A stretch of DNA of 64,000 bases from a virus, in IMG/VR virus record IMGVR_UViG_3300029959_000014, positions 1 through 64,000 of that record, one strand, 5' to 3'. The notes beneath the pieces were generated by a model. The model ran no database searches. It had not been told where the DNA came from and worked only from the letters and a program-made list of their open reading frames with translations. Shown one piece after another: positions 6,714 to 63,559 of the stretch. Position numbers and translations under genes: made by a program. Within the stretch, counting starts at the first letter, position 1; the number at the start of each line of letters is the position of its first letter.

Positions 6714-9059
6714 TTAGAAGCCAAATTTTTGTAGATTGGTTTGACCTTTTATTGCTGTGTTCCATTCAATGTCAACTGCCCAGAAATATGATTCAAGTTT
6801 CTTCTTTATGGTTTTTTCAGCCATTAATTTCCAATCTACTAGATGTGATATTTGTGAGGTATCAAATCCATCATCTATACATATTGTTTCTCCATGTTTA
6901 AGGTGGACCAATCTTGGTTTTTCTCCTTCTTGGATTGTATAGTTGAAGTGTTGTAATGCATAGGTTTTCCCATCAGCCCAAGCATTCTTTTCACCATTGT
7001 AATTGGTCTTACGAAGTTCTCTAGGGATGGATATATCGTAGATATTGGCTGTTCCATCAAGAACCGATCGGTAATGATCACGGACGAATTTTGTTGCTTT
7101 TTCAACTTCACCTTTAAGTAGAGTTGTTTCTAATAAATAAGATAGACACTGTTTGGTCATTATTGAATTATCTGAACGTTTTATTTCAAGTCCCATGAAT
7201 TTAAATTCATCGCAATCTCTACCTTCTTCCCAGATGAGATGACCAGCATACTTCTTCTTACTAGCCTGTGATCTATCATTGGATTTTGGCTTAAAGATTA
7301 TACGACGAAATAATTTTTCAGATTTCAATTTGAAATGGATTTTACATCCTTGTTCATCGGACCACTTTACTAATTCTTCATTTAACCATTTTTCAAAGTA
7401 TAAACATTCGGAGCCTGTTTTGACCTCAGAAAAGAAAACGGAGTCCGTATCGCCGTAGATTACCGATTTCCCCTTCAATTTGACGAGTTCTTGAATATGT
7501 TTATTGATCTTTTGCCCAGTGGCAGTTACGAATGCTGCTTTTTCTTCATCATAACATTCAGATGACTCTGCGCCCATAATTCCATAAATAGAGTTCACCA
7601 GAGCCTTTGCTGCGGAATCACGTGCACTAGCACCGTCTAATCCACGATTCTTCTGATCTCTATAGACTTCACGCAGATCCATAAGTTTTTGAGTGGACTT
7701 GTGAATTATTCCATCGCAGTCACTAGAAAGTTCGTAGGCTAAAATTATGTGTGGGTAAAGGGAATTCAAGTCAACTGTTGCTACCCACTCATGTACACCG
7801 AGTTTTGGAGTGACAACTAATGCACCTGGAAACTTCGGTCCATCATCTTCATCGTCACCTTTGTATTTACGGCGAGGAAGGGGTTTGATGCCTTCATGTC
7901 GAACATAGGTGGCAATGATGGTGCTGTTGTGTAGACTTTCAGTAATTTTGTTCCCTGCGATAAATCGTATGGATTCAAAGAATTTGTAGAGTCCAAGTTT
8001 CTTGTCAATTACTTTGAGGGCCTTAATATCGTTTTTGCAGTATGCTATGAAATCATCCCATCGTTCAGCAACAATAATATCATTGATGATTGGCCCAAGA
8101 TCTTGATATGTGTATGCTGCTTCTTTTAGAAGTGATTTGTCAGATATGACTGATTTAAGACCATTAGATTCTCTTTGACCTTTACCAACATTGTATTTTT
8201 TGAATGCTTCCATCATATCGAGACATGCACGACCAGGAAGATAGGATCTGAATTGTTCACGCTTCTTATATATGGTTATCTTCGTTGATGGTTCAGCATA
8301 ACGACATAGACTTTTCTTTAGTGTTCCTTGGGTTCGTAGAATTTTAGCACGATTAATAATATATGGTATGTCGAATTGATCACTGTTCCATGCAGCAAGA
8401 ATATCTGGATTAAGTTCTTGGATATAAGCCATTACCATTTGGTAGAGTTCTTGTTCAGTCTCACACATGAATTGATCGGGATCATTTGATTTACCAATTG
8501 CGTAAGTGAATACGACTTCCTTGTCATTGTAGTTGTTGCCAATTTGGATAGATACGATTGGGGCAGTTGCTTCTTTTGGTCCAGTAAATCCACCAGTATT
8601 GTCCCAAGTCTCAATATCAAAATACATTACAAGGGGATCCATAGGATGATCGACTTCAACTGGAATTGGCTTATTGTCTATTACTTTGTAAGCATAACGA
8701 ATTTTATGATCGATCAGGAATCGCTTATCAAATAATACATCGCTTTCACGAGTGAACGAATATCCAAGATCTCGAACATCTCGAACATCAGTAGGAATGT
8801 TTACAATAACTTTTCTAATTTCGTTATGTTTATAGTCTAATAGGATTTCATCTTCAATTCGTTTAATTGCTGGATGAGAAAACTTTGTTGCTTCATTAGC
8901 AGGCACATATAAGTATGGTTCATATGGAAATGAATGAGTTGCAGTGACCATGGGATCTTCGTAACATCGAGAATAGAGATTTACAATTGGTATACCACTA
9001 TGTCTGTCAATGTAATAACCAGATTCCATGACCACATAAGTGCGATCATCAGCATTCAT
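6714..9059 (-). CDS. polB: family B DNA polymerase
   Basis: Exo I FDIET, motif A DLNSLYP, motif B KALVNSIYG and motif C YGDTDS are all present in order. At 781 aa it is compact. Confidence 0.92.
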   Translation of the reverse strand: MNADDRTYVVMESGYYIDRHSGIPIVNLYSRCYEDPMVTATHSFPYEPYLYVPANEATKFSHPAIKRIEDEILLDYKHNEIRKVIVNIPTDVRDVRDLGYSFTRESDVLFDKRFLIDHKIRYAYKVIDNKPIPVEVDHPMDPLVMYFDIETWDNTGGFTGPKEATAPIVSIQIGNNYNDKEVVFTYAIGKSNDPDQFMCETEQELYQMVMAYIQELNPDILAAWNSDQFDIPYIINRAKILRTQGTLKKSLCRYAEPSTKITIYKKREQFRSYLPGRACLDMMEAFKKYNVGKGQRESNGLKSVISDKSLLKEAAYTYQDLGPIINDIIVAERWDDFIAYCKNDIKALKVIDKKLGLYKFFESIRFIAGNKITESLHNSTIIATYVRHEGIKPLPRRKYKGDDEDDGPKFPGALVVTPKLGVHEWVATVDLNSLYPHIILAYELSSDCDGIIHKSTQKLMDLREVYRDQKNRGLDGASARDSAAKALVNSIYGIMGAESSECYDEEKAAFVTATGQKINKHIQELVKLKGKSVIYGDTDSVFFSEVKTGSECLYFEKWLNEELVKWSDEQGCKIHFKLKSEKLFRRIIFKPKSNDRSQASKKKYAGHLIWEEGRDCDEFKFMGLEIKRSDNSIMTKQCLSYLLETTLLKGEVEKATKFVRDHYRSVLDGTANIYDISIPRELRKTNYNGEKNAWADGKTYALQHFNYTIQEGEKPRLVHLKHGETICIDDGFDTSQISHLVDWKLMAEKTIKKKLESYFWAVDIEWNTAIKGQTNLQKFGF

Positions 9060-10768: not shown

Positions 10769-11494
10769 TTAATCACTCTCAATTCTAGGAGCCAGCATAT
10801 AGTAGCCAATTTCACAGCCACCAACTTGTATACTGATTTTACATGGCATGTCATTACCAGATGAAAATTCCACATCGCCCTTTAGATGTTTGAATAGACG
10901 TTTCATATAATCCATGTTATAGAGGCTACTGTTGTTGTCTACAGTTATCATGCCATTATCAATCTCGAAGGTGAGTTTATCATGATCGTTGCTAACGTAG
11001 AAGTGTGAATGGTTGTTTTGAATGTGAACACGAATTTTATCATAGTATGGTGAAGTTTTAGTCAGGAACTTACGCATGTCACTGGCCTTAATAATGGTTT
11101 TAGAAGTCCATATCATGGTTGGTTCGTTAGGTTCCTTTTTAACAACAGCATCAGCATCGTGCTTAAACACGCTACTATATTTACCACTTTCAAATTTCAA
11201 CATTGTTAATGTTTTATTTTCATCAGCAATCTGACTAATAGTTACAAATCCATAGGTGAGGTTGGCAGATGTTCGTAGGTTTTCAAGTTTAATAACAATG
11301 TCCTGTTCAGTGAGATCATAACACTCAAATACACTAGTTGGAATGGTCAGATTCACTAATGCGACATTTGCGAGATCAACAAACTTAACAATGATACCAT
11401 CAGTTTTAAAGTGCAGGGTAACTTCATCTTCACGAATAGCACACATCTGATTAATTATGTCTCTAAAGTGTAGATACTTGATAACAGTAGACAT
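10769..11494 (-). CDS. pcna: PCNA-type DNA polymerase sliding clamp
   Basis: The C-terminus GCEIGYYMLAPRIESD matches the PCNA signature (L.YYLAPKIEDE). The N-terminal DGIIVKFVDLANVALVNLTIPTSVFECYDL aligns to the first PCNA domain. Confidence 0.8.
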   Translation of the reverse strand: MSTVIKYLHFRDIINQMCAIREDEVTLHFKTDGIIVKFVDLANVALVNLTIPTSVFECYDLTEQDIVIKLENLRTSANLTYGFVTISQIADENKTLTMLKFESGKYSSVFKHDADAVVKKEPNEPTMIWTSKTIIKASDMRKFLTKTSPYYDKIRVHIQNNHSHFYVSNDHDKLTFEIDNGMITVDNNSSLYNMDYMKRLFKHLKGDVEFSSGNDMPCKISIQVGGCEIGYYMLAPRIESD

Positions 11495-11566: not shown

Positions 11567-11938
11567 CTACTGGTATTTTAGAAAAGATCTTCGATACCAA
11601 GCATAATACTTATTATATAATTCTTCAATTTTGTATTTGGCATCTTTGTCTATGAAGTAGCGATATCCACCATATCCTGATTTTGTTTCTCCATATTCAC
11701 CATAGATTACTATCCAATCACTCAAAGTGTCAAGTGAATGATTTACATCATTTTTAGATATTAAGCCTTCAAAAACTTCACAGAGTCGTGTAAACCATAC
11801 AGGTTGACCATTCGTGTTATTGTGGTAGATTTCACAGGCAATAATTAGATCAATACTTAACTTGCGTTTGAGGCTGTCAAAATGCATTTGTTTTAAATCT
11901 TCATAAGATGGTTCACAATCACAAAAGTCAGGCATCAA
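11567..11938 (-). CDS. hypothetical protein
   Basis: It is a co-oriented ORF with a TTTTATAATA box upstream. Confidence 0.45.
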   Translation of the reverse strand: MMPDFCDCEPSYEDLKQMHFDSLKRKLSIDLIIACEIYHNNTNGQPVWFTRLCEVFEGLISKNDVNHSLDTLSDWIVIYGEYGETKSGYGGYRYFIDKDAKYKIEELYNKYYAWYRRSFLKYQ

Positions 11939-17809: not shown

Positions 17810-19849
17810 TTAAAAAGTTATTTTCATAACTCTTTCTGTTGCACCCTTAACCTTCACAGTTACAGAAGATCGCTTGGTAGTAGAAAATCCTAGACCACTT
17901 AACTGATCTGTTGTTGATTTTACTGCTGACTTGCTAGACAAGGCTTCAAATACTCGTTTATGTTCATATAATTCTTGCTTTAGATACTCGTTGTAAAACC
18001 CTGATGGACTTTCAATGTTTATACAGTCCTTAAGCATGAAGAATACATGTCTATGACCAATTCCATCCTGTTCATCCCAGTAATTTGGTGAATACATTAT
18101 AACACTTACTGGAATAAACTGATTAGTTTTTATGTTCCACACATCTCGCGATGACATTTGAGATGATAACTTCTCCTGTATACTAAATCCATTACTATCT
18201 AATGTTACTTCTGCAACTACTACATTTTCTCCCGGTCGAAGTTCTTTATTATAAATAAATTCAAAGATCTGTCCATCAAATTCAATTTCTGCTTTGAAAC
18301 CTTCTTTACCACCTCGATTATTATACTGATGAACAAAGAACTTGTATACACCGTGAGACATACTTCGTAGATCAGTGTAAATGATGTTCTCTACTGCTGG
18401 AACACCTTCACGTGGTTGAGTAATATCCACATCGAGTATCCCACTACTTTTGTGTTTATATCCTTTATTGCTAAAGTAAATATGATTATTGCTTGGTTCT
18501 ATGCAATGAGCATCAAGATCATTGGGATCATGTTTACTGTTGTCATTCCACTGAATTGAAAATCGCAGGACTCCATCTACATTTCCACCAGCCATTTTTA
18601 CATTGGCTTTCATAGTAGAATCAGTGATGTTACCTGTGTATGCCCATGAGAATGCATTGTTCCACTTAAACATTGATTTACTATCAGCCTTTGCTGGTGC
18701 AATCAATGATACCATATTAGATGATAGTTTATTCTCAAATAACACTTCAATTTCGCGCACAGATGGCAACATATCACTTATGAATTTAGATACTGGGATT
18801 TCTTCTACTTTTGAGAACTTTTTAGGATCTACAGCAATATCTGATTTCAGACTTTCAAATATATCAGAACTTCCAGTAATACGCTTTGCTGCATCACGAT
18901 TACTAAACAGTATATTGTTGACTGTTATGTCATCAAGCGTTGCATATCTTCTACCAAGTGATGGTAGATATCCAAGTTCCTCTACTGTTTTTTGAGCATC
19001 TTCAAGCATTTTCTTTGTAAAGATTGCTTTAGGGCGCTTGTAATTTGTAGGGGCAACCACCTTCTCGTATCGTTTTACTGCTTCATCGAGTTCCATACCG
19101 GAGGTTATGTCAATTAGAAGTGTCCCTATACTGTGATTACGGATTTTACCAATTACCGGACCTGCTTCAACTGAATATTCCCAAGCAAACACATCATGAT
19201 CTGTTGCTGAACTATACAACAATTTATAGTGTTTAAACTTCTCAAGAACTGATTTCCATTCTTCACCTTTATACAATGTATTGGAATTTATAAGTTCAAG
19301 AACTGTGTCAATACTTTCACTGGACAGTTCATCAAGTGATCGCTTAAATACATCTTTAACTGCCTGATAATTACCTTTAACTGTGTCTAGAGTTTCACGA
19401 CCACTATAAACAAATCTAGATGGAAGATCAACATACAGGTGTTGCCATTCTTTTGCAATACCATCAATAAGTTCAAGATTTTTATCAACCACAACCTTAC
19501 TTTCTTTTGTTACAAATACACCGGAGATTGATTTACTCTTAATATATTTGTGTAGCGCATTAATTACTGTCTGGAATGTTAGATCATTTACTTGGAAATC
19601 CCAAATAGTAGATACCTTACCATCTTTAAGAATGACTACATTTCCAAGATTCTTAATGAATCTTCTACAACATGAACAATCATATTCTCGTCGCTTACGA
19701 TAGATTTCATTAGTTCCCACAGGAAATGCATCAAGATATACATTCCACATTTCATCGAGATCTACATCTACTGTGAACAGATGATTGATGTTAGATGTTT
19801 TGACTTCAAAATTTTTCTGAAGTGCTTTTTTAAATTCTACAAATTCCAT
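17810..19849 (-). CDS. large hypothetical protein (679 aa)
   Basis: It is the longest orphan. It has a CSCCRRF cluster and a DVDLD acidic motif, with no confident family match. Confidence 0.5.
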   Translation of the reverse strand: MEFVEFKKALQKNFEVKTSNINHLFTVDVDLDEMWNVYLDAFPVGTNEIYRKRREYDCSCCRRFIKNLGNVVILKDGKVSTIWDFQVNDLTFQTVINALHKYIKSKSISGVFVTKESKVVVDKNLELIDGIAKEWQHLYVDLPSRFVYSGRETLDTVKGNYQAVKDVFKRSLDELSSESIDTVLELINSNTLYKGEEWKSVLEKFKHYKLLYSSATDHDVFAWEYSVEAGPVIGKIRNHSIGTLLIDITSGMELDEAVKRYEKVVAPTNYKRPKAIFTKKMLEDAQKTVEELGYLPSLGRRYATLDDITVNNILFSNRDAAKRITGSSDIFESLKSDIAVDPKKFSKVEEIPVSKFISDMLPSVREIEVLFENKLSSNMVSLIAPAKADSKSMFKWNNAFSWAYTGNITDSTMKANVKMAGGNVDGVLRFSIQWNDNSKHDPNDLDAHCIEPSNNHIYFSNKGYKHKSSGILDVDITQPREGVPAVENIIYTDLRSMSHGVYKFFVHQYNNRGGKEGFKAEIEFDGQIFEFIYNKELRPGENVVVAEVTLDSNGFSIQEKLSSQMSSRDVWNIKTNQFIPVSVIMYSPNYWDEQDGIGHRHVFFMLKDCINIESPSGFYNEYLKQELYEHKRVFEALSSKSAVKSTTDQLSGLGFSTTKRSSVTVKVKGATERVMKITF

Positions 19850-21175: not shown

Positions 21176-22126
21176 TAAACATTTCAGTATATTTTATTTT
21201 AGTTTCTTTATTTTTCATTCTCGAATGACATGAATGACACATAGTTATAAATAATTTAGAACTATTATCACACAATGATTTTGGATTCTCCATTACATGA
21301 TGGACTGTCATTTTTTCTTTATTCTCATCTTCAGTTTTACCACATAATACACATTTCTTCCCCAAAATATTCTCACACGTTCTTTAAAACTATCGCGTTC
21401 AAATCTATGACAATACCCAGTATTTCTTAATGTTACACCATCATTCCAATGTGGATGTTTTGAATCTCGCAATGAAACATTTCTTAATATAGTATTTTTT
21501 CTAACAATACAACCACAAGATTCTTGTTTTCCATTAATTAAACTAGTTGTTTTTATCCATTTTTCATTACCACAATCACATTTACATTTCCAGTAACAAT
21601 TATTATTATTTCTAATTTCATATTCACTAGATGTTGTAAGTTTTCCAAATCTTTTATTTGATATATCAATTATCCTAGATGGTTTTTTGATACAACCACA
21701 TGAAACATACTTATTTTTTAATTTTTTACATGACAATAATACCATATTACCACAATTACATTGACACATCCATTTTACTTTAAAATTAGTAGTTTCATCA
21801 CAAATTGAATATAGACATTTAACATTACCTATTAATTTTCCAGTATAATCTAGTGACATTTTTAAATAATTTTGATTCATTTTGGTTGTAACTTGTTTAC
21901 AATTTATACTCTCCATTCTAATATTATTATTTAAATGATATGTATTTCTATAAACTTCAGTTTCACAAACAACACATTTACATAACCACCTTATTTTTAA
22001 TCTATCATTATCTCCATAATATTCCCATGAAATAATATCATAGTCATTAACAGTTTTCCCAGTATAATCAATTTTAGGACCATAGTGATAGTTTTTGTCA
22101 CTTGACATAACATTAGCAACGTTCAT
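21087..22126 (-). pseudogene. frameshift-disrupted HNH endonuclease (two overlapping ORFs, 21308-22126 and 21087-21365)
   Basis: The upstream ORF has triplicated W.C.C.CG zinc modules and ends ...RVRIFWGRN in the wrong frame. The downstream ORF resumes CVLCGKTEDENKEKMTVHHV...CHSCH, which is the HNH core of the paralogs at 779 and 23820. Confidence 0.5.
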
Positions 22127-30703: not shown

Positions 30704-31357
30704 TTATACATCAAATTTTTTCCTAGTGTGTTTGTTGAATCCTTCAAAGCACGTTGAATTTTCTAGCACGTTATGCCAGGGTGGACAATACTTGTGACAT
30801 TGCGGTGATATGTAGTATGCACAGTTATAACATACATTGAGTTCTTGATTAGATTTGTTAGTGTCATAGAAGGTTTTTACTACATTAGTTATGAGATCTG
30901 GTGTAGATAGTTTAGTGTCTTCGTAATTTGCAGGTTTATCAAATAATGATGATTTCTTTACATTATGGGTGCGCGATGGAATGAAAGTATTGTTGATGCG
31001 TTCTAATGCTTTAGTTTTCATTTCGTTGTATTCTTTTAAGGTAGTGTCAATTTCAACGGGTTCTATTTTAATACTTGATGCATCTTTAACACGATCATTG
31101 CTGATCTTACTCCTAAACATTCTAACTTTGCCATTATCATCCTTACGGCGAATGTTTAGGTTATGGCGCCGGTAATATATGTTGTGAGTTGGTGCAAATT
31201 TATCGAATTCACCGGTGTCAATTTCAATGTAGTGATCCATGTTTGGTAATTCATCACTGATGATAAGGTTGGTGGGATAGTTGTTGTTCTTGAATTTCTT
31301 GATGAGATGAGTCGGCTTTGGGAGTTTAGGATCCAAATTGGCGTAGGATACATACAT
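30704..31357 (-). CDS. hypothetical protein with a C-terminal Cys/His cluster
   Basis: It has a CYNCAYYISPQCHKYCPPWH motif. Confidence 0.45.
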   Translation of the reverse strand: MYVSYANLDPKLPKPTHLIKKFKNNNYPTNLIISDELPNMDHYIEIDTGEFDKFAPTHNIYYRRHNLNIRRKDDNGKVRMFRSKISNDRVKDASSIKIEPVEIDTTLKEYNEMKTKALERINNTFIPSRTHNVKKSSLFDKPANYEDTKLSTPDLITNVVKTFYDTNKSNQELNVCYNCAYYISPQCHKYCPPWHNVLENSTCFEGFNKHTRKKFDV

Positions 31358-31936: not shown

Positions 31937-32134
31937 TCACATTTGACTTATTTTGAAATCTTTCTTGTCCACCACGTTAACGTAGACGAATGCTCGCTTG
32001 TGGCATTTGTTACATTCAATGGCGATTTCTAGATAGTTGTCATCGATACCAATAAAATGAGTGCGTGTTGTGATATCCACGCTCTTACAATGCTTACAAG
32101 CAATTGCCAAATTGATGGTCATATAACACATCAC
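31937..32134 (-). CDS. small zinc-ribbon protein (CKHCKS...CNKCHK)
   Basis: It has two CxxC pairs. Confidence 0.4.
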   Translation of the reverse strand: MMCYMTINLAIACKHCKSVDITTRTHFIGIDDNYLEIAIECNKCHKRAFVYVNVVDKKDFKISQM

Positions 32135-32454
32135 AACATAATGACGAATAATGCTACAATGGTGATTGCTTGTATAATGCCTATTGCCATGAGGAGTTTG
32201 TAAGAATTGTTGATCCTGTTGTGTAATGATGATAGTTCATAATCCAGGGTTGATAGATCTTTATCAATTTCGTCTATATCGTTACAAATTTGAGTTTGAT
32301 TGATAGCAAGTTGTTCCACAGTTTCAATTACTGTGCTTACAACGGTGGAATTTGCTTCGTCTTCAAGTTGCTGTACAGTTTCAAGATTGTCAATGATTTC
32401 CTGTTCGGTGATGCGATCATTTTCAATGTATCGTCCTTTAATGAACTTTCCCAT
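32131..32454 (-). CDS. tail-anchored coiled-coil membrane protein
   Basis: It has an acidic coiled N-terminus and a C-terminal TM helix. Confidence 0.4.
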   Translation of the reverse strand: MGKFIKGRYIENDRITEQEIIDNLETVQQLEDEANSTVVSTVIETVEQLAINQTQICNDIDEIDKDLSTLDYELSSLHNRINNSYKLLMAIGIIQAITIVALFVIML

Positions 32455-35234: not shown

Positions 35235-36122
35235 TTAAGTTGAATTCATATCTTCTAATTTGTTCTGGTAATAGGTGAAGATTGAACGTGGTGGAGACAT
35301 GAAATGTTTACGGGCTTCAGTGCTTACTTGTTTGGCAATTATCGGCATTGCGATCTTGACGTTTTTGAATTGTTCGGGGCCGATATCAGCAAGAACTTTA
35401 TCCAATGCCCCATAAATTTCACTGTCAGAAAGTGGTGGTAGTTCGACTTTATTGGGATCTATATCCTTTGGGATCTTATCAAGTTTTAAAGTATCGTGCT
35501 TTTCCTTGACGGCTAACAATCCATTGTTGTATGATGGTTTGTATGACTTGATTACAAAGCCCTCGATGTCTTGATGATCACGAAGCATACTGTCTCTGTA
35601 GGTGTAGAGATCTTCGATGCTGGTGTGTCTGGTGATTACCTGAACATCGATACATGGGATGTTACTGTGATGGCATTGTTGATGAAGGAAGTTATAGTGG
35701 GTGAATTGCTGGGTCTTGGAAGTCCATAGATCGAATGCTACGAATGATGGTTGATCATAGGTTTTAATACGGGTGGGAGATCGTCCTTTGGCCATCAACT
35801 CACCATAAAGGATGTAGTTATTACTCCAGTTACGAGCATCGAGTAATAGTTCCTTGATATTTTCTAGAAGTTGACCATCATCAATGCTTCGCGCAATACT
35901 CAAAAATGATGGATCTGCAATTGGTTGATTACGAGATCCCATTATGAGATTGTCTTCGTTGTCAAGATAGAAGCGAACATTGCTACCATCATGTTTAGGT
36001 TGCCAGAGAAGTTCTTCACCTAATATCATACCGGGACCAGGATACAATAATGCTATGCGATTGAGATGTGGATAAGTGATGTCACCGAGATTTAATGATA
36101 CTTGTTCTTTAACGTTAAACAT
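35235..36122 (-). CDS. ATP-dependent nucleotidyltransferase ligase (RNA/DNA ligase family)
   Basis: Motif I KHDGSN, motif III YILYGEL, motif IV EGFVIKSY and motif V LAVKEK are present in canonical order. Confidence 0.55.
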   Translation of the reverse strand: MFNVKEQVSLNLGDITYPHLNRIALLYPGPGMILGEELLWQPKHDGSNVRFYLDNEDNLIMGSRNQPIADPSFLSIARSIDDGQLLENIKELLLDARNWSNNYILYGELMAKGRSPTRIKTYDQPSFVAFDLWTSKTQQFTHYNFLHQQCHHSNIPCIDVQVITRHTSIEDLYTYRDSMLRDHQDIEGFVIKSYKPSYNNGLLAVKEKHDTLKLDKIPKDIDPNKVELPPLSDSEIYGALDKVLADIGPEQFKNVKIAMPIIAKQVSTEARKHFMSPPRSIFTYYQNKLEDMNST

Positions 36123-36640
36123 TAAGTGAACAAATATAATTTACCATATATAAAGAAAGAGATAAAAGTTATATAATAGAAATGTTAAAAAGGTGTCAAA
36201 TAGTTTGTTATAATCGTGTGATGGGATTGATCCATCAAATGATTTAGTGTGGTAATAAGAGAAAATCACGAAAATAATTATACATACATGTAACTCACCG
36301 GCTTCATTACTAGAATTATCCGGCCAAAAATATTAGATGGTGATGAACCAAGTCTACTATCAACGTGTGGATGGTTTGGAAATTTAATGATGGAGTCCAC
36401 ATCAGCCCATCGTATACCGCCATTCCATTAAGCGGTCAAGTTTGTTGTAATGTGATCATTGTGGAAGACTATTCATTGTTTATCCACATGTTTTAAACTT
36501 CTACCCGTGATAGCCGTAAATAACTCAATTGTTATCATTGTGGTCATCTATCTACCGTTTGTTTATTGACCAGCAGGGAAGTTCTAGTCTTGCATGAAGT
36601 TACCTTCATTCTGCACATTACATAACTTGTTTGCATTCTC

Positions 36641-36700
36641 GATATCACTCCCATGCCTGAATGCTAGGCCGAACGTCACGTTTGATATCCAACGTCAACC
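36641..36700. repeat. ~60-nt direct repeat unit 1 (GATATCACTCC...GTCACGTTTGATATCCAACG)
   Basis: A second copy lies at 36860-36915 and flanks the tRNA-like element. Confidence 0.45.
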
Positions 36701-36768
36701 GCTTATACTGTTTTTATCGGTTGAAATATCCTACAGGGCATCCATAATAAATGGTTGCTCAAGTTAGC

Positions 36769-36849
36769 AGTGGATTGATGATGGTGAAAGGAATTGAACC
36801 TTCGTTAACCAACATTAGACGATAGCAAACCGGTCAGACTATCGTAGTA
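36769..36849 (-). ncRNA. tRNA-like element a (7/7-bp acceptor GATGGTG/CACCATC plus T-arm GAAGG-TTCAATT-CCTTT, 81 nt)
   Basis: It has a perfect acceptor helix and a canonical T-loop, but the 49-nt interior (containing a 7-bp ACGATAG/CTATCGT stem) does not give a canonical D-arm and anticodon-arm fold. Confidence 0.4.
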
Positions 36850-36859
36850 ATACACCATC

Positions 36860-36915
36860 AATACCTTCTGATATCACTCCTACGGCGAAGGCAACCTGCG
36901 AGTCACGTTTGATAC
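36860..36915. repeat. ~60-nt direct repeat unit 2
   Basis: It pairs with 36641-36700. Confidence 0.45.
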
Positions 36916-37187
36916 CCAACGCACCAGATCGAGCGGTTTCACCTGGTGAATCACATTCCAACTTAATGGACTTGCCGCAGTGCTGATAACCAGCAATAGG
37001 AATTGCACCTATATCTCCACCAGGAACGATGGTGAGATTCTGTTACTCCATGCTGGTTAGAACTCTTTGTTCGGTCACCCAATTTGTTTCCATGATAACG
37101 CTCGTGGATAATCGCAGTAAACTTCCAAGCGGTAAATTCTGTTTATTCGTGCACTAATAAACTTATTGGTGGGTTTACTTCCACCTA

Positions 37188-37251
37188 TAACTGATGGGTG
37201 GATTCGAACCAACCCGTTGCACACCCATTGTGTCATCGGTTACGGTTGCCA
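37188..37251 (-). ncRNA. tRNA-like minihelix b (acceptor AACCGAT/ATCAGTT, T-arm GGTTCGAATCC)
   Basis: It has a T-loop TTCGAAT and a 6/7 acceptor pairing. Only ~19 nt separate the 5' acceptor strand from the T-arm, so the D and anticodon arms are absent. Confidence 0.4.
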
Positions 37252-37290
37252 CATTTGCGCAGATGTGGTTTACAACCATTTTATCAGGTT
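37243..37290. repeat. 48-nt direct repeat, copy 1
   Basis: It contains a CCACAT-loop8-ATGTGG hairpin and supplies the 5' acceptor strand of minihelix b. It is 47/48 identical to 37551-37598. Confidence 0.6.
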
Positions 37291-37403
37291 TTGGATTTGT
37301 TCCTGGGAAATTAAACCTGCAAAACGCCCACGGTTAACGAGCGTGCCTCGGCGGTTTAACAACTTTGATAATGGGGTTCTAAACCTGCTGAATTGAGACC
37401 CAC

Positions 37404-37461
37404 ATAACCAGTAGTGGATTCGAACCACTCCTCTTTCTCTTCCACCCGTCTGTGGCTGGTT
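37404..37461 (-). ncRNA. tRNA-like minihelix c (perfect T-arm AGTGG-TTCGAAT-CCACT)
   Basis: It has a 5/5 T-stem, an acceptor AACCAGC/ACTGGTT (6/7) and an internal CCAC-AGACGG-GTGG hairpin. Confidence 0.4.
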
Positions 37462-37510
37462 ACTCTCCTTACTCTCGCCTGGGATTTTTATCTCGCAGAG
37501 GATTTCAGGG

Positions 37511-37559
37511 ATAACCGATTGGGGATTCGAACCCCTTAATTCCCATTTGGTTTATCGGT
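37511..37559 (-). ncRNA. tRNA-like minihelix d (acceptor AACCGAT/ATCGGTT 7/7, T-arm GGGG-TTCGAAT-CCCC)
   Basis: It has a perfect 7-bp acceptor and a 17-nt linker to the T-arm. Its 5' strand lies within the 48-nt repeat copy 2. Confidence 0.45.
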
Positions 37560-37598
37560 TACGGTTGCCACATTTGCGCAGATGTGGTTTACAACCAT
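37551..37598. repeat. 48-nt direct repeat, copy 2
   Basis: It is a near-identical copy of 37243-37290. It is followed by a GNRA-capped hairpin GTTGGGATT-GCAA-AATCCAAC. Confidence 0.6.
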
Positions 37599-37784
37599 TT
37601 ATCCGTTTGTTGGATTTGCAATCCCAACCAGGCGTCTTACATTCCCTGTCACCTGCATTCCATCGTCGTAAAGACTTGCCTGCAGGGAAACCATCATACA
37701 AGATTTGACCTTGCACGATGGCTAATTCACTTACCGGGTCATCACTCCCGTATACATTATATTACACGTAATATTATTTAATAG

Positions 37785-38033
37785 TTACGAAATAATACTA
37801 GTAACCTCACCGTTATTGTGAAACGTATCAACGGCTTGATCATTGTATTCAATTACTTCGGCAAATACTTGATCACTTGGCACATAATCAGCCATAGCAT
37901 ATTTCATGGTCTTAAGACATTGTTTGACACTTTTGAATACAATGGCTTCCTCACGGTGATGAGCAAATCCTTTACGACCATAATAGATGGTATTGTTGTT
38001 TTCAGTGATCCACATAATTACTAGTGATGTCAT
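37785..38033 (-). CDS. hypothetical small protein
   Basis: It has a TTTTTATAATA box 20 nt upstream. Confidence 0.45.
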   Translation of the reverse strand: MTSLVIMWITENNNTIYYGRKGFAHHREEAIVFKSVKQCLKTMKYAMADYVPSDQVFAEVIEYNDQAVDTFHNNGEVTSIIS

Positions 38034-38652: not shown

Positions 38653-39033
38653 TTAATTGCTATAGCCACCATCGAATACCATGGGATTTTTAATTTCTAG
38701 AAAGTCCAATACTGATTGAAGTTCTTCCATCTTGTATGGTTTCTCACTTATATCATCGTCAAAGATAATTCCACCCCAACCAATGTAAGTATCGCCATCG
38801 TTATTTACTGTGTTGTATGGTGCTTTGCTAGAGATGTTTGGCCACCAAGTCACGATTTGCCAAGGATCGTCTTCAGTATCATAATCATCAATTAGTTCTT
38901 GCATATCATCATCACTGATCAGTGATTTGATTTTAGGCCATACAACTTCAACTATCTCATCAGTAAGTTTTGCACCAATAATTAAAAATGATGAACTTGA
39001 ACTGTTACTAATAAAACCATGTCTAACTTTCAT
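38653..39033 (-). CDS. paralog 2 of the RHGFISNSSSSS family
   Basis: Its N-terminus is MKVRHGFISNSSSSSFLIIG. It is a tandem duplicate with a diverged C-terminus. Confidence 0.5.
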   Translation of the reverse strand: MKVRHGFISNSSSSSFLIIGAKLTDEIVEVVWPKIKSLISDDDMQELIDDYDTEDDPWQIVTWWPNISSKAPYNTVNNDGDTYIGWGGIIFDDDISEKPYKMEELQSVLDFLEIKNPMVFDGGYSN

Positions 39034-52456: not shown

Positions 52457-52834
52457 TTAGCAATTTCCCGTAAACATTTTGTCCATTAATTTCCAATTAG
52501 TTGGTGGAAACCTAAAGTTTTTCTCTAGTATCGTTACACTTAAAACGTAACTATCGAATTTTTCTTGGGCTTCGAAATCCCATGGGGTGTTGTCTATTGA
52601 TTTGGTTAATTGCAGAATGTAGGCTGCATAAATCATTTCATCTTTGAATTGTTCAGCAATATTACGACATTGGATATATGTGTCACTTGTAGTTTTAGAA
52701 CCCTGTAACTTGATGATATCAGTAATCTCATTGAATTGATCATTATAATCTGTGATGCGATCATTCAGTGCTGTTATGTGATCTAAAACTTCATCGTGTG
52801 GCATTGTTAATAGCACACTACTAAACTGTTGCAT
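52457..52834 (-). CDS. hypothetical protein
   Basis: It has a promoter box 21 nt upstream. Confidence 0.45.
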   Translation of the reverse strand: MQQFSSVLLTMPHDEVLDHITALNDRITDYNDQFNEITDIIKLQGSKTTSDTYIQCRNIAEQFKDEMIYAAYILQLTKSIDNTPWDFEAQEKFDSYVLSVTILEKNFRFPPTNWKLMDKMFTGNC

Positions 52835-61982: not shown

Positions 61983-62648
61983 AACTAGGGGTTTTCCTTT
62001 TTAATTTAGTGTTCTGAAAACTTTACTGGAAGATAATGAGATGGAATGAACCAACTCACTACCAGTATATTGAAAGGAGATAACCATGAGGAGACAAACA
62101 TGAGGATTTCGTTTACCCGGATCGGATGGAATGTGTCTATGCCAGAATTAACCCGGTTTGGTAGTTTTTTACATTGATACCAGCAATCATGAGTATGGCA
62201 GGAGTTGCACCTGCGTAGGACTGACCACTTGAGTTTGAATCAAGCCCGGTTTCTGCTTCGGTACATACTCAATTAGTAATTTTACCGTGAGCAGTTTAAC
62301 GATCATTATGATCTTGAAACTGTCACGTGGTAAATACACGTTCACTGATCCTTGGTGTTTGGCCTATGTAGATTAGAGTCCGGGCGATCAGTTTCCCTTT
62401 CTACTCAATCCCATTATTGTTACAAGATTTTAGGTGTAAAAGTTTTAGGCATTTTTGCACCTGTTACCTTGCTACACTATAAGATTGATCTGCTGACTAT
62501 ATAATGATTTTGTTTTGATAGTTTTAGAAGTAGTGGATCAATGATCAGAGTTATATACTATTGCTTTTGTTATGAAAAATGTAACGGAAAGATTGTTAGT
62601 GCGCAAGAAAAGAGTGGTGGTGATTACAAGGGAATTTAAGCACTGAAA

Positions 62649-63098
62649 TTACTCTGCACTGCATTCCATTGGATTAGGGATAATCTCTACTGTGAACTTT
62701 GGAATCTCCTCACGGGTATTTGCTTGGAGTGCATCCATAAACCACTGTTCAAGTTCTACGTGCTTGGCTTTCTCGGCCTGACAGATTGCCTTTTCTTGTG
62801 AGCGACATGAAGTAATGATTGGATCAGCATTATATTGTTCATCGAAATCTGGAAGTTTCATGATATCTCGAAGATCGCCTTCGCTTATTTCTTTTCGTTC
62901 ATGAACTGGAAGACCCGTTGCCTGAAGTTTTTTATAAATATCACCATAAGTAGCACTCTTAATCTGCTTTTTACGATCATTCTTCTGTGCAACGATTGGT
63001 GTGCGAACGTTGCTGTAGTAGGTTGATACCTTGGAACTGTAGATGTTGCGAAGTTCCTTGATCTGGGCTACTGATAGCCTTGTTTTGCTTGCTGTCAT
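62649..63098 (-). CDS. hypothetical basic protein
   Basis: It has a promoter box 21 nt upstream. Confidence 0.45.
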   Translation of the reverse strand: MTASKTRLSVAQIKELRNIYSSKVSTYYSNVRTPIVAQKNDRKKQIKSATYGDIYKKLQATGLPVHERKEISEGDLRDIMKLPDFDEQYNADPIITSCRSQEKAICQAEKAKHVELEQWFMDALQANTREEIPKFTVEIIPNPMECSAE

Positions 63099-63154: not shown

Positions 63155-63559
63155 TTATATTATACCTTCTAGAACTAGATCACAAAGAGCATCACATCGT
63201 TTAAGCATGATATGTTCACGCGGGGACCATTCAAAGTTTATGGTATTGAATTTTTTAATGATGTATTGAACTTGAGCATGTAAAGGTTTTAAATGTTCAC
63301 TTTTAACCTGATATTTTCCTGTGATTTGGAATATAGTTAACTGACTATCACTTGTTAATGTAAGATCTTTAATTCCTCCTGCTAATGCCGATGTAAGACA
63401 TAGGATGATACTAGTATATTCAGACTGATTATTACTATAGTTCCCAAAATAAAAGGAGTTGCTATATACCTCTTCATTTTTATCATTACAAATTATAAAG
63501 GCTCCAGCACCATGAGAATTATTCATTCTACTTCCTCCATCAGCGTATGCATAAAACAT
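63155..63559 (-). CDS. rnhA: RNase H1-type ribonuclease H
   Basis: The DEDD residues sit in YADGGS, NNQSEYTSII, LTSDSQ and CDALCD, with RNase H1-like spacing. Confidence 0.8.
   Translation of the reverse strand: MFYAYADGGSRMNNSHGAGAFIICNDKNEEVYSNSFYFGNYSNNQSEYTSIILCLTSALAGGIKDLTLTSDSQLTIFQITGKYQVKSEHLKPLHAQVQYIIKKFNTINFEWSPREHIMLKRCDALCDLVLEGII

Follow-up and report, generated by a model that had tools for sequence, protein, structure and literature searches.

The DNA analysed here, referred to as the window, comprises 64,000 nucleotides (nt), namely positions 1 to 64,000 of the IMG/VR virus record IMGVR_UViG_3300029959_000014. It is packed with small genes, 111 of 115 of which lie on the minus strand according to our own gene selection. 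Between positions 36123 and 37784 there is a stretch of 1,662 nt that has no open reading frame (ORF) of at least 80 amino acids on either strand; this is the longest ORF-free stretch of the window, the runner-up measuring 1,311 nt. Its G+C content is 0.437 for positions 36296-37758, as compared to 0.337 for the window. An original prediction, made from the sequence, had singled out this stretch as ORF-free, GC-richer than its surroundings and filled with minihelices resembling the acceptor stem and T arm of transfer RNA (tRNA), and this description proved correct. As detailed below, the stretch is a conserved, strand-specific, non-decoding locus of a structured RNA, which consists of tRNA-derived top halves and accessory hairpins. 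Its modules are compiled in Table 1; loci found in the searches are designated by L numbers.

The consensus GGTTCRANTCC of canonical T-loops occurs five times in the 64 kb, although only 0.21 matches are expected for the whole window, and none of 100 shuffled sequences reached five. Four of the five sites (36790, 37200, 37416, and 37523) are located on the minus strand of the locus, in agreement with the claim of at least four T-loops at this place. All four combine a 5-base-pair (bp) T stem and a 7-nt T-loop with an acceptor-like stem: As foreseen, the strand that comes after each T arm can pair with sequence located 17-49 nt upstream. The stems are AACCGAT/ATCGGTT in minihelix A, ACCGATG/CATCAGT in minihelix B (six of seven pairs), TAACCAG/CTGGTTA in minihelix C, and GATGGTG/CACCATC in element F; in minihelix B, acceptor stem and T stem contain a single mismatch each. 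Three of the four linkers (17, 20, and 26 nt in A, B, and C) are indeed too short for a D arm and an anticodon arm; the linker of F has 49 nt. If folded on their own, A, C, E, and F adopt the proposed acceptor-plus-T-arm shapes (fold z = -2.6 for C and -3.65 for E), and the minimum-free-energy fold of A is exactly the proposed structure. The corresponding fold of B departs from the proposed shape in the T-arm region.

None of these elements is an ordinary tRNA. ARAGORN reported no tRNA gene in the locus, neither with default settings nor with introns allowed. At thresholds relaxed to 80%, it called E, as tRNA-Asn(gtt), and F, both as poor cloverleaves; the intron-aware mode gave only scattered calls at 80%, two of them on the plus strand. 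The Rfam tRNA model passed for element F only (32.3 bits versus a gathering score of 29). D and anticodon arms of the decoding type, with a 7-nt anticodon loop, U33, and a purine at position 37, were found in none of A, B, C, E, and F. In E, the stem-loop CACCA-UCGUUCC-UGGUG has C33 and C37, and in F the place of the anticodon arm is taken by another hairpin (Table 1). The prediction that this is not a normal tRNA cluster was therefore right.

Two pairs of direct repeats, both noted originally, are present. The first (37211-37299 and 37530-37618) extends over 89 nt with 80% identity, and about 48 nt at its core are identical throughout; the hairpin CCACAT-N8-ATGTGG lies within this repeat, from which minihelices A and B also obtain their 5' acceptor strands. 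The second (36866-36921 and 36636-36694) extends over 59 nt with 76% identity, and the GNRA-capped hairpin lies alongside. Overlooked were element E, hairpin X, and the outer stem GGUUG/CAACC, the UAAA bulge, and the palindromic loop of the repeat hairpin, designated K in the following, as well as the fact that all elements are modules of one larger conserved RNA.

Table 1. Modules of the RNA locus and the adjacent gene, sorted by decreasing position (L004 is a related locus)
Feature	Positions	Strand	Description
AT-rich promoter-like leader	37758-37800	-	ATTAAATAA ... GTATACGGGAG; putative RNA start at about 37758
Hairpin X	37691-37721	-	12-bp stem, invariant T-loop-like loop GUCAAAU; fold z = -4.1
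Hairpin K-A	37562-37596	-	GGUUG / UAAA bulge / CCACAU / loop C-UGCGCA-A / AUGUGG / CAACC
Minihelix A	37512-37561	-	UAACCGAU, 17-nt GGG-containing linker, T arm GGGG-UUCGAAU-CCCC, then AUCGGUUA
Minihelix C	37404-37463	-	UAACCAG, 26-nt linker, AGUGG-UUCGAAU-CCACU, CUGGUUA; without K hairpin upstream
Hairpin H2	37371-37405	-	conserved loop AAUUCAGCAGGUUU, AUUCAGCAGGUU
Connector	37282-37370	-	conserved, AUCAAAGUUGUUAAACCGCCG ... CAGGUUUAAUUUCCCAGGAACAAAUCCAAAACCUGAUAAAA
Hairpin K-B	37243-37277	-	identical to K-A; part of the 89-nt direct repeat
Minihelix B	37188-37242	-	UAACCGAUG, 20-nt linker, GUUGG-UUCGAAU-CCACC, CAUCAGUUA
Element E	36987-37058	-	8-9-bp acceptor stem AACCAGCA/UGCUGGUU, weak D arm, T arm AUAGG-UGCAAUU-CCUAU
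Module Z	36877-37009	-	follows GGUUAUCAGCACUGCGGCAAGUCCAUU...; 81.6% identity over 136 nt to L004
Element F	36779-36859	-	near-complete cloverleaf; 7-8-bp hairpin with 11-13-nt loop instead of anticodon arm
Second copy of the 3' sub-module of Z	36636-36694	-	UAUCAAACGUGAC ... GGAGUGAUAUC; 76% identical to 36866-36921
GNRA-capped hairpin	36594-36609	-	AUGAAG-GUAA-CUUCAU; in the part of the locus without counterpart in other loci
Terminal hairpin G	36298-36326	-	UGGCCGGAUA-N11-GAAGCCGG
T-rich tract	36258-36280	-	UUAUUUUCGUGAUUUUCUCUU; possible transcript end
RNA ligase gene (PF09414)	35235-36122	-	directly downstream of the RNA locus

Conservation and covariation in related loci

Relatives of the locus were retrieved from IMG/VR and metagenome contigs by means of the exact hairpin sequence and of looser patterns. 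After the removal of duplicates and chance matches, the family consists of 15 distinct loci: that of the window and L001, L003, L004, L005, L009, L010, L032, L035, L046, L050, L063, L147, L159, and L161. The 14 others are of uncultivated viral or metagenomic origin, and one of them (L159) contains neither K nor a minihelix. A stretch of 36-46 nt is 100% identical across viral contigs that are otherwise dissimilar.

A covariance model of the unit formed by K and the adjacent minihelix (R1) was built from six units. At E < 1e-4, it detected 16 units, which come from 11 sources; L063, L161, and L147 yielded three more; the two matches in the window are 37511-37597 (100.5 bits) and 37187-37278 (71.3 bits). 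In the alignment of the 16 units, which was fitted to the model, 97.5% of the cells are paired and 19 of 24 pairs have changed on both sides, with compensatory changes in all four helices. No shuffled alignment out of 500 reached any of five measures, and controls with slid partners were paired to 26-49%. Seventeen of the paired cells hold G-U, a pair that turns into an A-C mismatch if the opposite strand is considered. It follows that selection acts on an RNA, namely the one read from the window's minus strand. Hairpin X provides an independent check, as its alignment is ungapped, anchored only on the invariant loop, and not fitted to a model: Among 13 copies from 11 loci, 91.7% of the cells are paired, many of them as G-U, 11 of 12 pairs show compensatory changes, and none of 500 shuffles reached the score. 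These findings demonstrate that the helices are maintained by compensatory substitutions on the minus strand; the elements cannot decode. Conservation and covariation in related genomes had been named in the original prediction as a check of the acceptor/T-arm minihelices, which they have passed.

The alignments also define the architecture of the unit. Its acceptor-like helix has 8-9 bp and not 7; the inner pairs covary, whereas the outer five (U-A, A-U, A-U, C-G, C-G) are almost invariant and read UAACC/GGUUA. The linkers are mostly 9-26 nt long and contain GG in all 12 units read by eye; in analogy to G18 and G19 of tRNA, these two residues could dock on the T-loop. A canonical T arm follows, and the 3' strand ends with GGUUA-U. 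In the unit of L003, which scores 44.6 bits with the Rfam tRNA model, the D arm is of textbook form, yet 8 nt stand in place of the anticodon arm; in that of L032, a D arm is accompanied by a stub of the anticodon stem with a tetraloop at its end. Judged from these two units and from the fuller elements E and F of the window, the modules clearly descend from tRNA.

Hairpin K is joined to the minihelix by 1-3 nt. Its outer stem comprises 5 bp (GGUUG/CAACC or AGUUG/CAACU) and is separated by a UAAA bulge, present only on the 5' side, from an inner stem of 6 bp that varies freely; the loop has 8 nt, and both stems covary. There are nine distinct loops (C-UGCGCA-A, A-UGCGCA-A, CA-GCGC-AA, UG-UGAUCA-G, C-UGAUCA, A-AUGCAU-G, CA-GGCC-AG, U-GACGUC, and UCGA-UCAA), and each of the nine contains a Watson-Crick palindrome. 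If the loops are collapsed to six independent classes, the palindrome has at least 6 nt in four of the six (shuffle P = 0.0003) and at least 4 nt in all six (shuffle P = 0.003). The mean self-duplex energy of the loops is -7.5 kcal/mol, as compared to -3.1 kcal/mol for shuffled loops. Where a locus has several K hairpins, their palindromes differ: UGAUCA, AUGCAU, and UGCGCA in L046; UGCGCA, GGCC, and GACGUC in L050; UCGA and UGCGCA in L004. A loop must be a palindrome if its partner is a copy of itself, but need not be one if it pairs with something else; as all K loops are palindromic, we infer that K is probably a self-pairing element and that the RNA self-associates. For the OLE and GOLLD RNAs, switching between GGCC, GAUC, and AGCU has been read as covariation evidence for symmetric intermolecular kissing loops (Kretsch et al., PMC12286853); the K loops likewise switch between palindromes, which is the feature used there for homo-oligomeric ornate RNAs.

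The remaining modules recur as well. All loci have an AT-rich box in front of them, which in relatives is of the type TTTTTATAC/TTTATATAC and is followed after about 19-20 nt by GTGTAA or a similar sequence, and T-runs lie behind all of them; the 12-mer TATACGGGAGTG is common to the leaders of the window and L003. The loop motif T[TA][CT]AGCAGGTT of H2 is shared by the window, L010, L046, L063, and L147, with different stems. With L035, the connector shares 80% identity across 172 nt, and with L046 90% across 89 nt, the latter match including the 3' part of minihelix C and the sequence following it; AAGTTGTTAAACCGCC occurs in L147, too. Module Z directly follows a minihelix also in L004, and its 7-bp stem covaries between the two loci (GGUAUCA/UGAUAUC in the window versus AUCUAUG/CAUAGAU in L004). 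The motif of hairpin G has one match in the window and none in 100 shuffles, and it closes the RNA locus in eight others (L009, L010, L032, L046, L063, L147, L159, where it occurs twice, and L161). For the AUAG/GAAG internal loop of this hairpin, a K-turn and a loop-E motif were considered and dropped, since neither consensus fitted by eye. Runs of five to six T residues are found in relatives at the place that corresponds to the T-rich tract.

Because the upstream promoter-like motif, the closing hairpin G, and the order of modules (X, then K with minihelix, then G) are shared with relatives, we regard the locus as probably one transcription unit. The cores of the relatives measure 250-700 nt, the minimal versions being those of L147 (about 370 nt) and L159 (about 250 nt); the window contains the largest one (1.46 kb), an expanded version in which two K-minihelix units are accompanied by a bare minihelix and by two tRNA-like elements of fuller form. 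The 5' 641 nt of the locus fold with z = -5.3. In the minimum-free-energy fold of the whole region, the two K hairpins, being identical, pair with one another, which makes this fold uninformative in detail.

Searches beyond these viral and metagenomic sequences indicate that the RNA family is new, as it was found neither in Rfam 15 nor in cultured phages nor in the genomes of 185,579 species. Rfam 15 was applied to the window and 10 loci at the gathering threshold, to the locus of the window at E<=10, and to six loci at E<=1; besides tRNA, only noise at chance level was reported (Plastid-ycf2 on the wrong strand, snoRNAs, and Pseudomonadales-1). At the same settings, the covariance models of GOLLD and ROOL matched neither the locus of the window (E<=10) nor the 10 (gathering threshold) or six (E<=1) loci. 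The model of transfer-messenger RNA (tmRNA) detected only a 17-nt T-arm fragment in L050 (15.1 bits versus 47), ARAGORN found no tmRNA, and the 3:70 pair of the units is C-G. There was no Rfam match to bacterial Y RNA of the YrlA type and no Ro60/TROVE domain among the proteins scanned with Pfam. Neither near nor distant blastn searches of 50,697 phage records gave a nucleotide match to the locus, nor did the RNA loci of two relatives match cultured phages, and no description of such an RNA was found in the full-text literature. Four public assemblies hold identical copies of the locus, adding no variation; gene callers left the stretch empty there.

With one genome per species, the search of the 185,579 species gave 35 pattern matches, all of which were chance-like or coding; 30 of the 35 were tested with R1, and only two weak matches resulted (L089 and L102 with 28.6 and 29.7 bits). 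Two other patterns were discarded: GCAAGGTCAAANCTTGTAT had a single chance match in coding DNA (L006), and GTTGTAAACN{17,21}GCAACNGTAAC led to 10 new loci without R1 match, all of them due to chance. About 40 metagenome contigs matched the search pattern by coincidence and belong to an unrelated element (GTTGTAAACAAAGTCATAACAAACTATGCAAC-TGGCACGCCGATTCTTCAC...CAGAGAGAGGACTACGCC), found among L011-L088, mostly in the Ga01631xx and ORBV01 series from microbial mats. This element is highly conserved, recurs in many contigs, and could represent a structured or mobile element in its own right.

Interpretation and competing explanations

As the most likely explanation, to which we assign about an even chance of being correct, we propose that the ORF-free locus encodes a large structured, self-associating non-coding RNA that displays tRNA top halves and represents a new viral family. 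Transcription from about 37758 down to about 36296 on the minus strand would yield one unit of about 1.46 kb. Its modules would be an AT-rich promoter, hairpin X with the loop GUCAAAU, one or several units of K and top half, further conserved hairpins, the closing hairpin GGCCGGAUA...GAAGCCGG, and a T-rich tract. In each top half, the 8-9-bp acceptor-like stem UAACC...GGUUA would be combined with a canonical T arm, and a short linker containing GG would replace the D and anticodon arms; docking of the GG linker on the T-loop would create a mimic of the tRNA elbow. The K loops would pair symmetrically, as kissing loops, with the same loop of another RNA molecule or, in the window, possibly with the second copy in the same RNA. 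Thus, the RNA may form dimers or larger assemblies, and two or three orthogonal loops per molecule would allow for higher-order assembly. The top halves would thereby be displayed to a factor that recognizes the acceptor stem, T arm, or elbow of tRNA. In our assessment, support decreases from the single transcript to the symmetric pairing of the K loops and further to the minihelices presenting a tRNA face to a factor. A bolder version, which we offer tentatively and consider doubtful, is a new class of self-assembling viral RNA, in which exapted tRNA top halves are fused to bulged hairpins with private palindromic loops. Orthogonal loops would polymerise the RNA into a multivalent ring, cage, or lattice studded with elbow mimics, which could trap or recruit a tRNA-recognizing factor of the host, possibly an archaeon.

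Several observations weigh against the proposal of a self-associating RNA. The outer five acceptor pairs are nearly invariant and do not covary; this invariance of UAACC/GGUUA points to sequence-specific recognition or cleavage and is left unexplained by the scaffold model. The kissing-loop argument is based on six independent loop classes from 15 loci, and the palindromes GGCC and UCGA have only 4 nt. As the K hairpins of the window are identical, due to a recent duplication, their contact could be made within one RNA. The percentage of paired cells in the 16-unit alignment is inflated by the fitting to the model. Positions 36330-36630, the 3' third of the locus, have no counterpart elsewhere and may lie outside the functional RNA. 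Finally, no partner protein is kept beside the locus; the adjoining RNA ligase gene is peculiar to the window.

The main competing explanation, which we hold to be rather unlikely, is that the locus is a polycistronic precursor with tRNA-like punctuation. The minihelices would serve as sites for ribonuclease P (RNase P) at the 5' side and for RNase Z, or an exonuclease together with the CCA-adding enzyme, at the 3' side; the products would be the K hairpins, X, H2, and CCA-tailed tRNA-like RNAs of 50-60 nt. The minimal substrate of RNase P consists of 12-13 bp, formed by an acceptor stem and the T arm on which it is stacked, and such punctuation has precedents in MALAT1/mascRNA, in the tRNA-microRNA units of murine gammaherpesvirus 68 (MHV68), and in the species 1 and 2 RNAs of phage T4. 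The folded shape of the minihelices is compatible with a processing signal, and all units start with G/U-UAACC and end with GGUUA-U, which suits a fixed cleavage site. The T4 RNA rnaC, a stable RNA from a tRNA cluster, ends in a canonical T arm (CCGGGTTCGAATCCCGG); genuine tRNAs are located directly downstream of the RNA locus in two relatives; and in the window the locus is followed by the gene of an RNA ligase. However, punctuation requires the shape only, whereas the outer acceptor sequence, K, and the 1-3-nt junction are conserved as one unit, which suggests that they act together. In addition, the acceptor helix continues past 7 bp by a U-A and often a G-U pair, so that there are no free 5' and 3' tails, and the RNA ligase is not a conserved neighbour. 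The minimal relative L159 possesses X and G without any minihelix; therefore the family can exist without punctuation. Note that processing would be compatible with a dimerisation of K after release and can coexist with the self-associating RNA that we favour.

We regard it as highly improbable that the elements are unusual functional tRNAs missed by the finders, be it due to introns at odd positions as in archaea, or to split or permuted genes; intron-containing and split tRNAs were among the original candidates. A possibly archaeal host, which is suggested by 19 genes with TATA-like boxes 28-35 nt before the ATG and no Shine-Dalgarno sequence in between, would fit this explanation, as would the four arms of E and F, the relaxed ARAGORN calls for both, and the Rfam match of F. 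It is contradicted by the outcome of the intron-aware searches, by the 17-26 nt left between acceptor strand and T arm in A, B, and C, by C33 and the missing purine 37 in E, and by the oversized loop of F. Furthermore, K is no bulge-helix-bulge motif, which would require 3-nt bulges around a 4-bp helix, whereas K combines a single bulge of 4 nt with an inner stem of 6 bp; the sequence of K, 5' acceptor strand, linker, T arm, 3' acceptor strand does not correspond to any circular permutation of a tRNA; the truncated architecture recurs in related loci; and one acceptor sequence is common to all units, which would be unexpected for tRNAs specific for different amino acids.

A decayed tRNA island, i.e. 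drifting pseudogene remnants of a viral tRNA cluster, has very little probability, too. Modules that clearly descend from tRNAs, like the units of L003 and L032, and the 3' third of the locus that is not conserved elsewhere would be expected in this case. Decay does not account, however, for the paired and compensated helices described above, for the identical stretch of 36-46 nt in dissimilar contigs, for the same truncation recurring in related loci (14 others belong to the family, with L159 lacking the minihelix), or for the conservation of the non-tRNA modules X, K, H2, and G alongside. Almost certainly wrong is the assumption of an element acting as DNA (a replication origin, a packaging or attachment site, or inverted repeats bound by a protein): It would agree with the inverted repeats and their palindromic centres, with the non-coding, GC-rich nature of the locus, and with the preference of many integrases for the 3' parts of tRNA genes, but it conflicts with the G-U pairs of the units and of hairpin X, with the one-sidedness of the UAAA bulge, with half-sites that vary freely and yet stay complementary, unlike those of operators, and with the common orientation of T-loops, upstream promoter-like motif, and downstream T-runs. 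The original interpretation was thus confirmed with respect to the abnormal cluster and the real minihelices; its candidates of decay and of intron-containing or split tRNAs were not supported, and neither was the analogy to herpesviral transcripts driven by RNA polymerase III, the genome being that of a tailed virus of a prokaryote.

Known systems, virus and host

The new family falls within a known kind, namely large virus-encoded structured RNAs linked to tRNAs, and GOLLD and ROOL are its closest counterparts in lifestyle and inferred behaviour. Both are large ornate RNAs of phages and prophages, are represented in Rfam, and form protein-free nanocages according to cryo-electron microscopy (PMC12286853). 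Like the new family, they are virus-encoded, non-coding, multi-hairpin RNAs of several hundred to more than 1,000 nt and often lie beside tRNA genes, as L004 and L050 do here; the linker of GOLLD can hold tRNAs, and its self-association, too, was inferred from palindrome-switching loops. In contrast, helices and conserved motifs differ, and the covariance models do not match. The tRNAs of GOLLD are optional and complete, whereas the tRNA parts of the new family are truncated, non-decoding, and integral, and its oligomer is only predicted. The integral truncated tRNA modules fused to hairpins with palindromic loops are its distinctive trait. The link of GOLLD and ROOL to tRNAs is unexplained; the new family makes such a link explicit, as truncated tRNA parts are welded to hairpins with the signature of self-pairing. 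L147 (about 370 nt) and L159 (about 250 nt) offer small, tractable versions for questions of assembly and of the recognizing factor. More generally, viral stretches with no or weak calls of tRNA finders can hide functional tRNA mimics.

Other systems share single features. The species 1 and 2 RNAs of T4 (rnaC and rnaD) are phage non-coding RNAs, and rnaC resembles the new family in its terminal T arm and its setting in a tRNA cluster; R1 matches rnaC in the T arm only (13.7 bits, E = 0.027). Unlike the RNA of the window with its approximately 1.46 kb, the T4 RNAs measure 119-139 nt and lack K, the UAACC/GGUUA stem, X, and G. As a side observation, rnaC (L124, 1409-1547) contains the perfect T arm CCGGG-TTCGAAT-CCCGG followed by CGTTTCG and may itself be a mimic of a tRNA top half. 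The tRNA-like domain of tmRNA is similar to the minihelices in combining acceptor stem, T arm, and a D-loop-like strand to an elbow without anticodon arm; the minihelices differ by the absence of G3:U70 (the alanine identity pair), of a tag reading frame, and of a pseudoknot body. In MALAT1/NEAT1 mascRNA and the tRNA-microRNA units of MHV68, non-decoding tRNA mimics are likewise part of a longer non-coding transcript and lie beside stable hairpins. These are eukaryotic or herpesviral, cut by RNase P and RNase Z, and carry the mimic at a defined 3' end, whereas the mimic of the new family is repeated and joined to a conserved hairpin. With the dimerisation initiation site of HIV-1, L9.3 of OLE, and L21a of GOLLD, hairpin K has in common a 6-nt palindrome in a loop of 8-9 nt, unpaired flanks, and exchanged palindromes. 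It differs from them in its context, a DNA virus in which the bulged hairpin is joined to a helix resembling tRNA, and its dimerisation is only predicted.

The window is part of a large tailed virus of a prokaryote without a close cultured relative. Its proteins include a family-B DNA polymerase, NAMPT, a UvrD-like helicase, a RuvB-like AAA+ protein, a thymidylate kinase, an MT-A70 methylase, a PD-(D/E)XK nuclease, and the RNA ligase; the polymerase is at most 26% identical to anything among the phage records. For the RNA ligase, no relative was detected by sequence in the PDB, and none was found in the viral contigs. It was considered as a conserved partner of the RNA and rejected; the 295-amino-acid neighbour in L004 is a different protein. 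In the large viruses, the RNA locus is located among methylase and nucleotide-metabolism genes. In the smaller viruses (L010, L063, and L159), it follows the gene of a 412-amino-acid P-loop protein (GGAGSGKS), a candidate for the large terminase subunit; in L003, two small ORFs lie between. Genuine tRNA genes (Rfam 55-63 bits) are located directly downstream of the RNA locus at positions 6244-6387 of L004 and 4398-4873 of L050, where the family thus sits at the head of a tRNA cluster.

With regard to the host, the motif TTTATAWW begins 28-35 nt before the ATG in 19 of the 115 genes, where 1.7 are expected. The TATA-like boxes have the forms TTTTATAATA / TTTATATA; examples are the genes 6714-9059, 10769-11494, 11567-11935, 21308-22126, 30704-31357, 32131-32454, 35235-36122, 37785-38033, 38653-39033, 52457-52834, and 62649-63098. 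No Shine-Dalgarno sequence lies between box and ATG in the 19 genes, and ACTAGT-like bases often precede the ATG directly. Sigma-70 promoters and intrinsic terminators are not enriched in the window over shuffled sequences. This geometry may reflect archaeal promoters with leaderless messenger RNAs or a promoter specific to the virus, and the host may be an archaeon; several protein domains of the window are typical of bacterial phages. The domain of the host affects which processing enzymes would act on the RNA. If it is archaeal, the RNA would be a candidate for a large ornate RNA of an archaeal virus, none of which is described in the libraries searched.

A second ORF-free stretch (61983-62648, minus strand) opens with the start motif of the relatives' RNA loci (TTATATAG...TATAGTGTAGCAAGG) and ends with CAUGGUUAUC. 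It holds the only tRNA of the window reported by ARAGORN, tRNA-Leu(caa) at 62189-62271, which the Rfam tRNA model did not report at the gathering threshold. A blastn comparison of the stretch around this tRNA with the family loci detected no similarity. The T-loop of the tRNA is UGCAACU, with G at position 55 as in several minihelices. Near this region, positions 63155-63559 (minus strand) code for a protein with an RNase H / RVT_3 domain. One of the few ORFs on the plus strand (779-1393) contains a NUMOD3 motif, as found in homing endonucleases. A 679-amino-acid protein assigned to phrog_1735, without Pfam domain, is encoded at 17810-19849 (minus strand) of the window, at 12102-14141 of L001, and at 9273-11312 of L004. 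It is unusually conserved: Its identity to Bacillus phage proteins is 59%, and matches were obtained in 557 phage records, among them phages of Salmonella and Klebsiella. The copy in L001 is 69% identical to that of the window and directly follows the RNA locus of L001.

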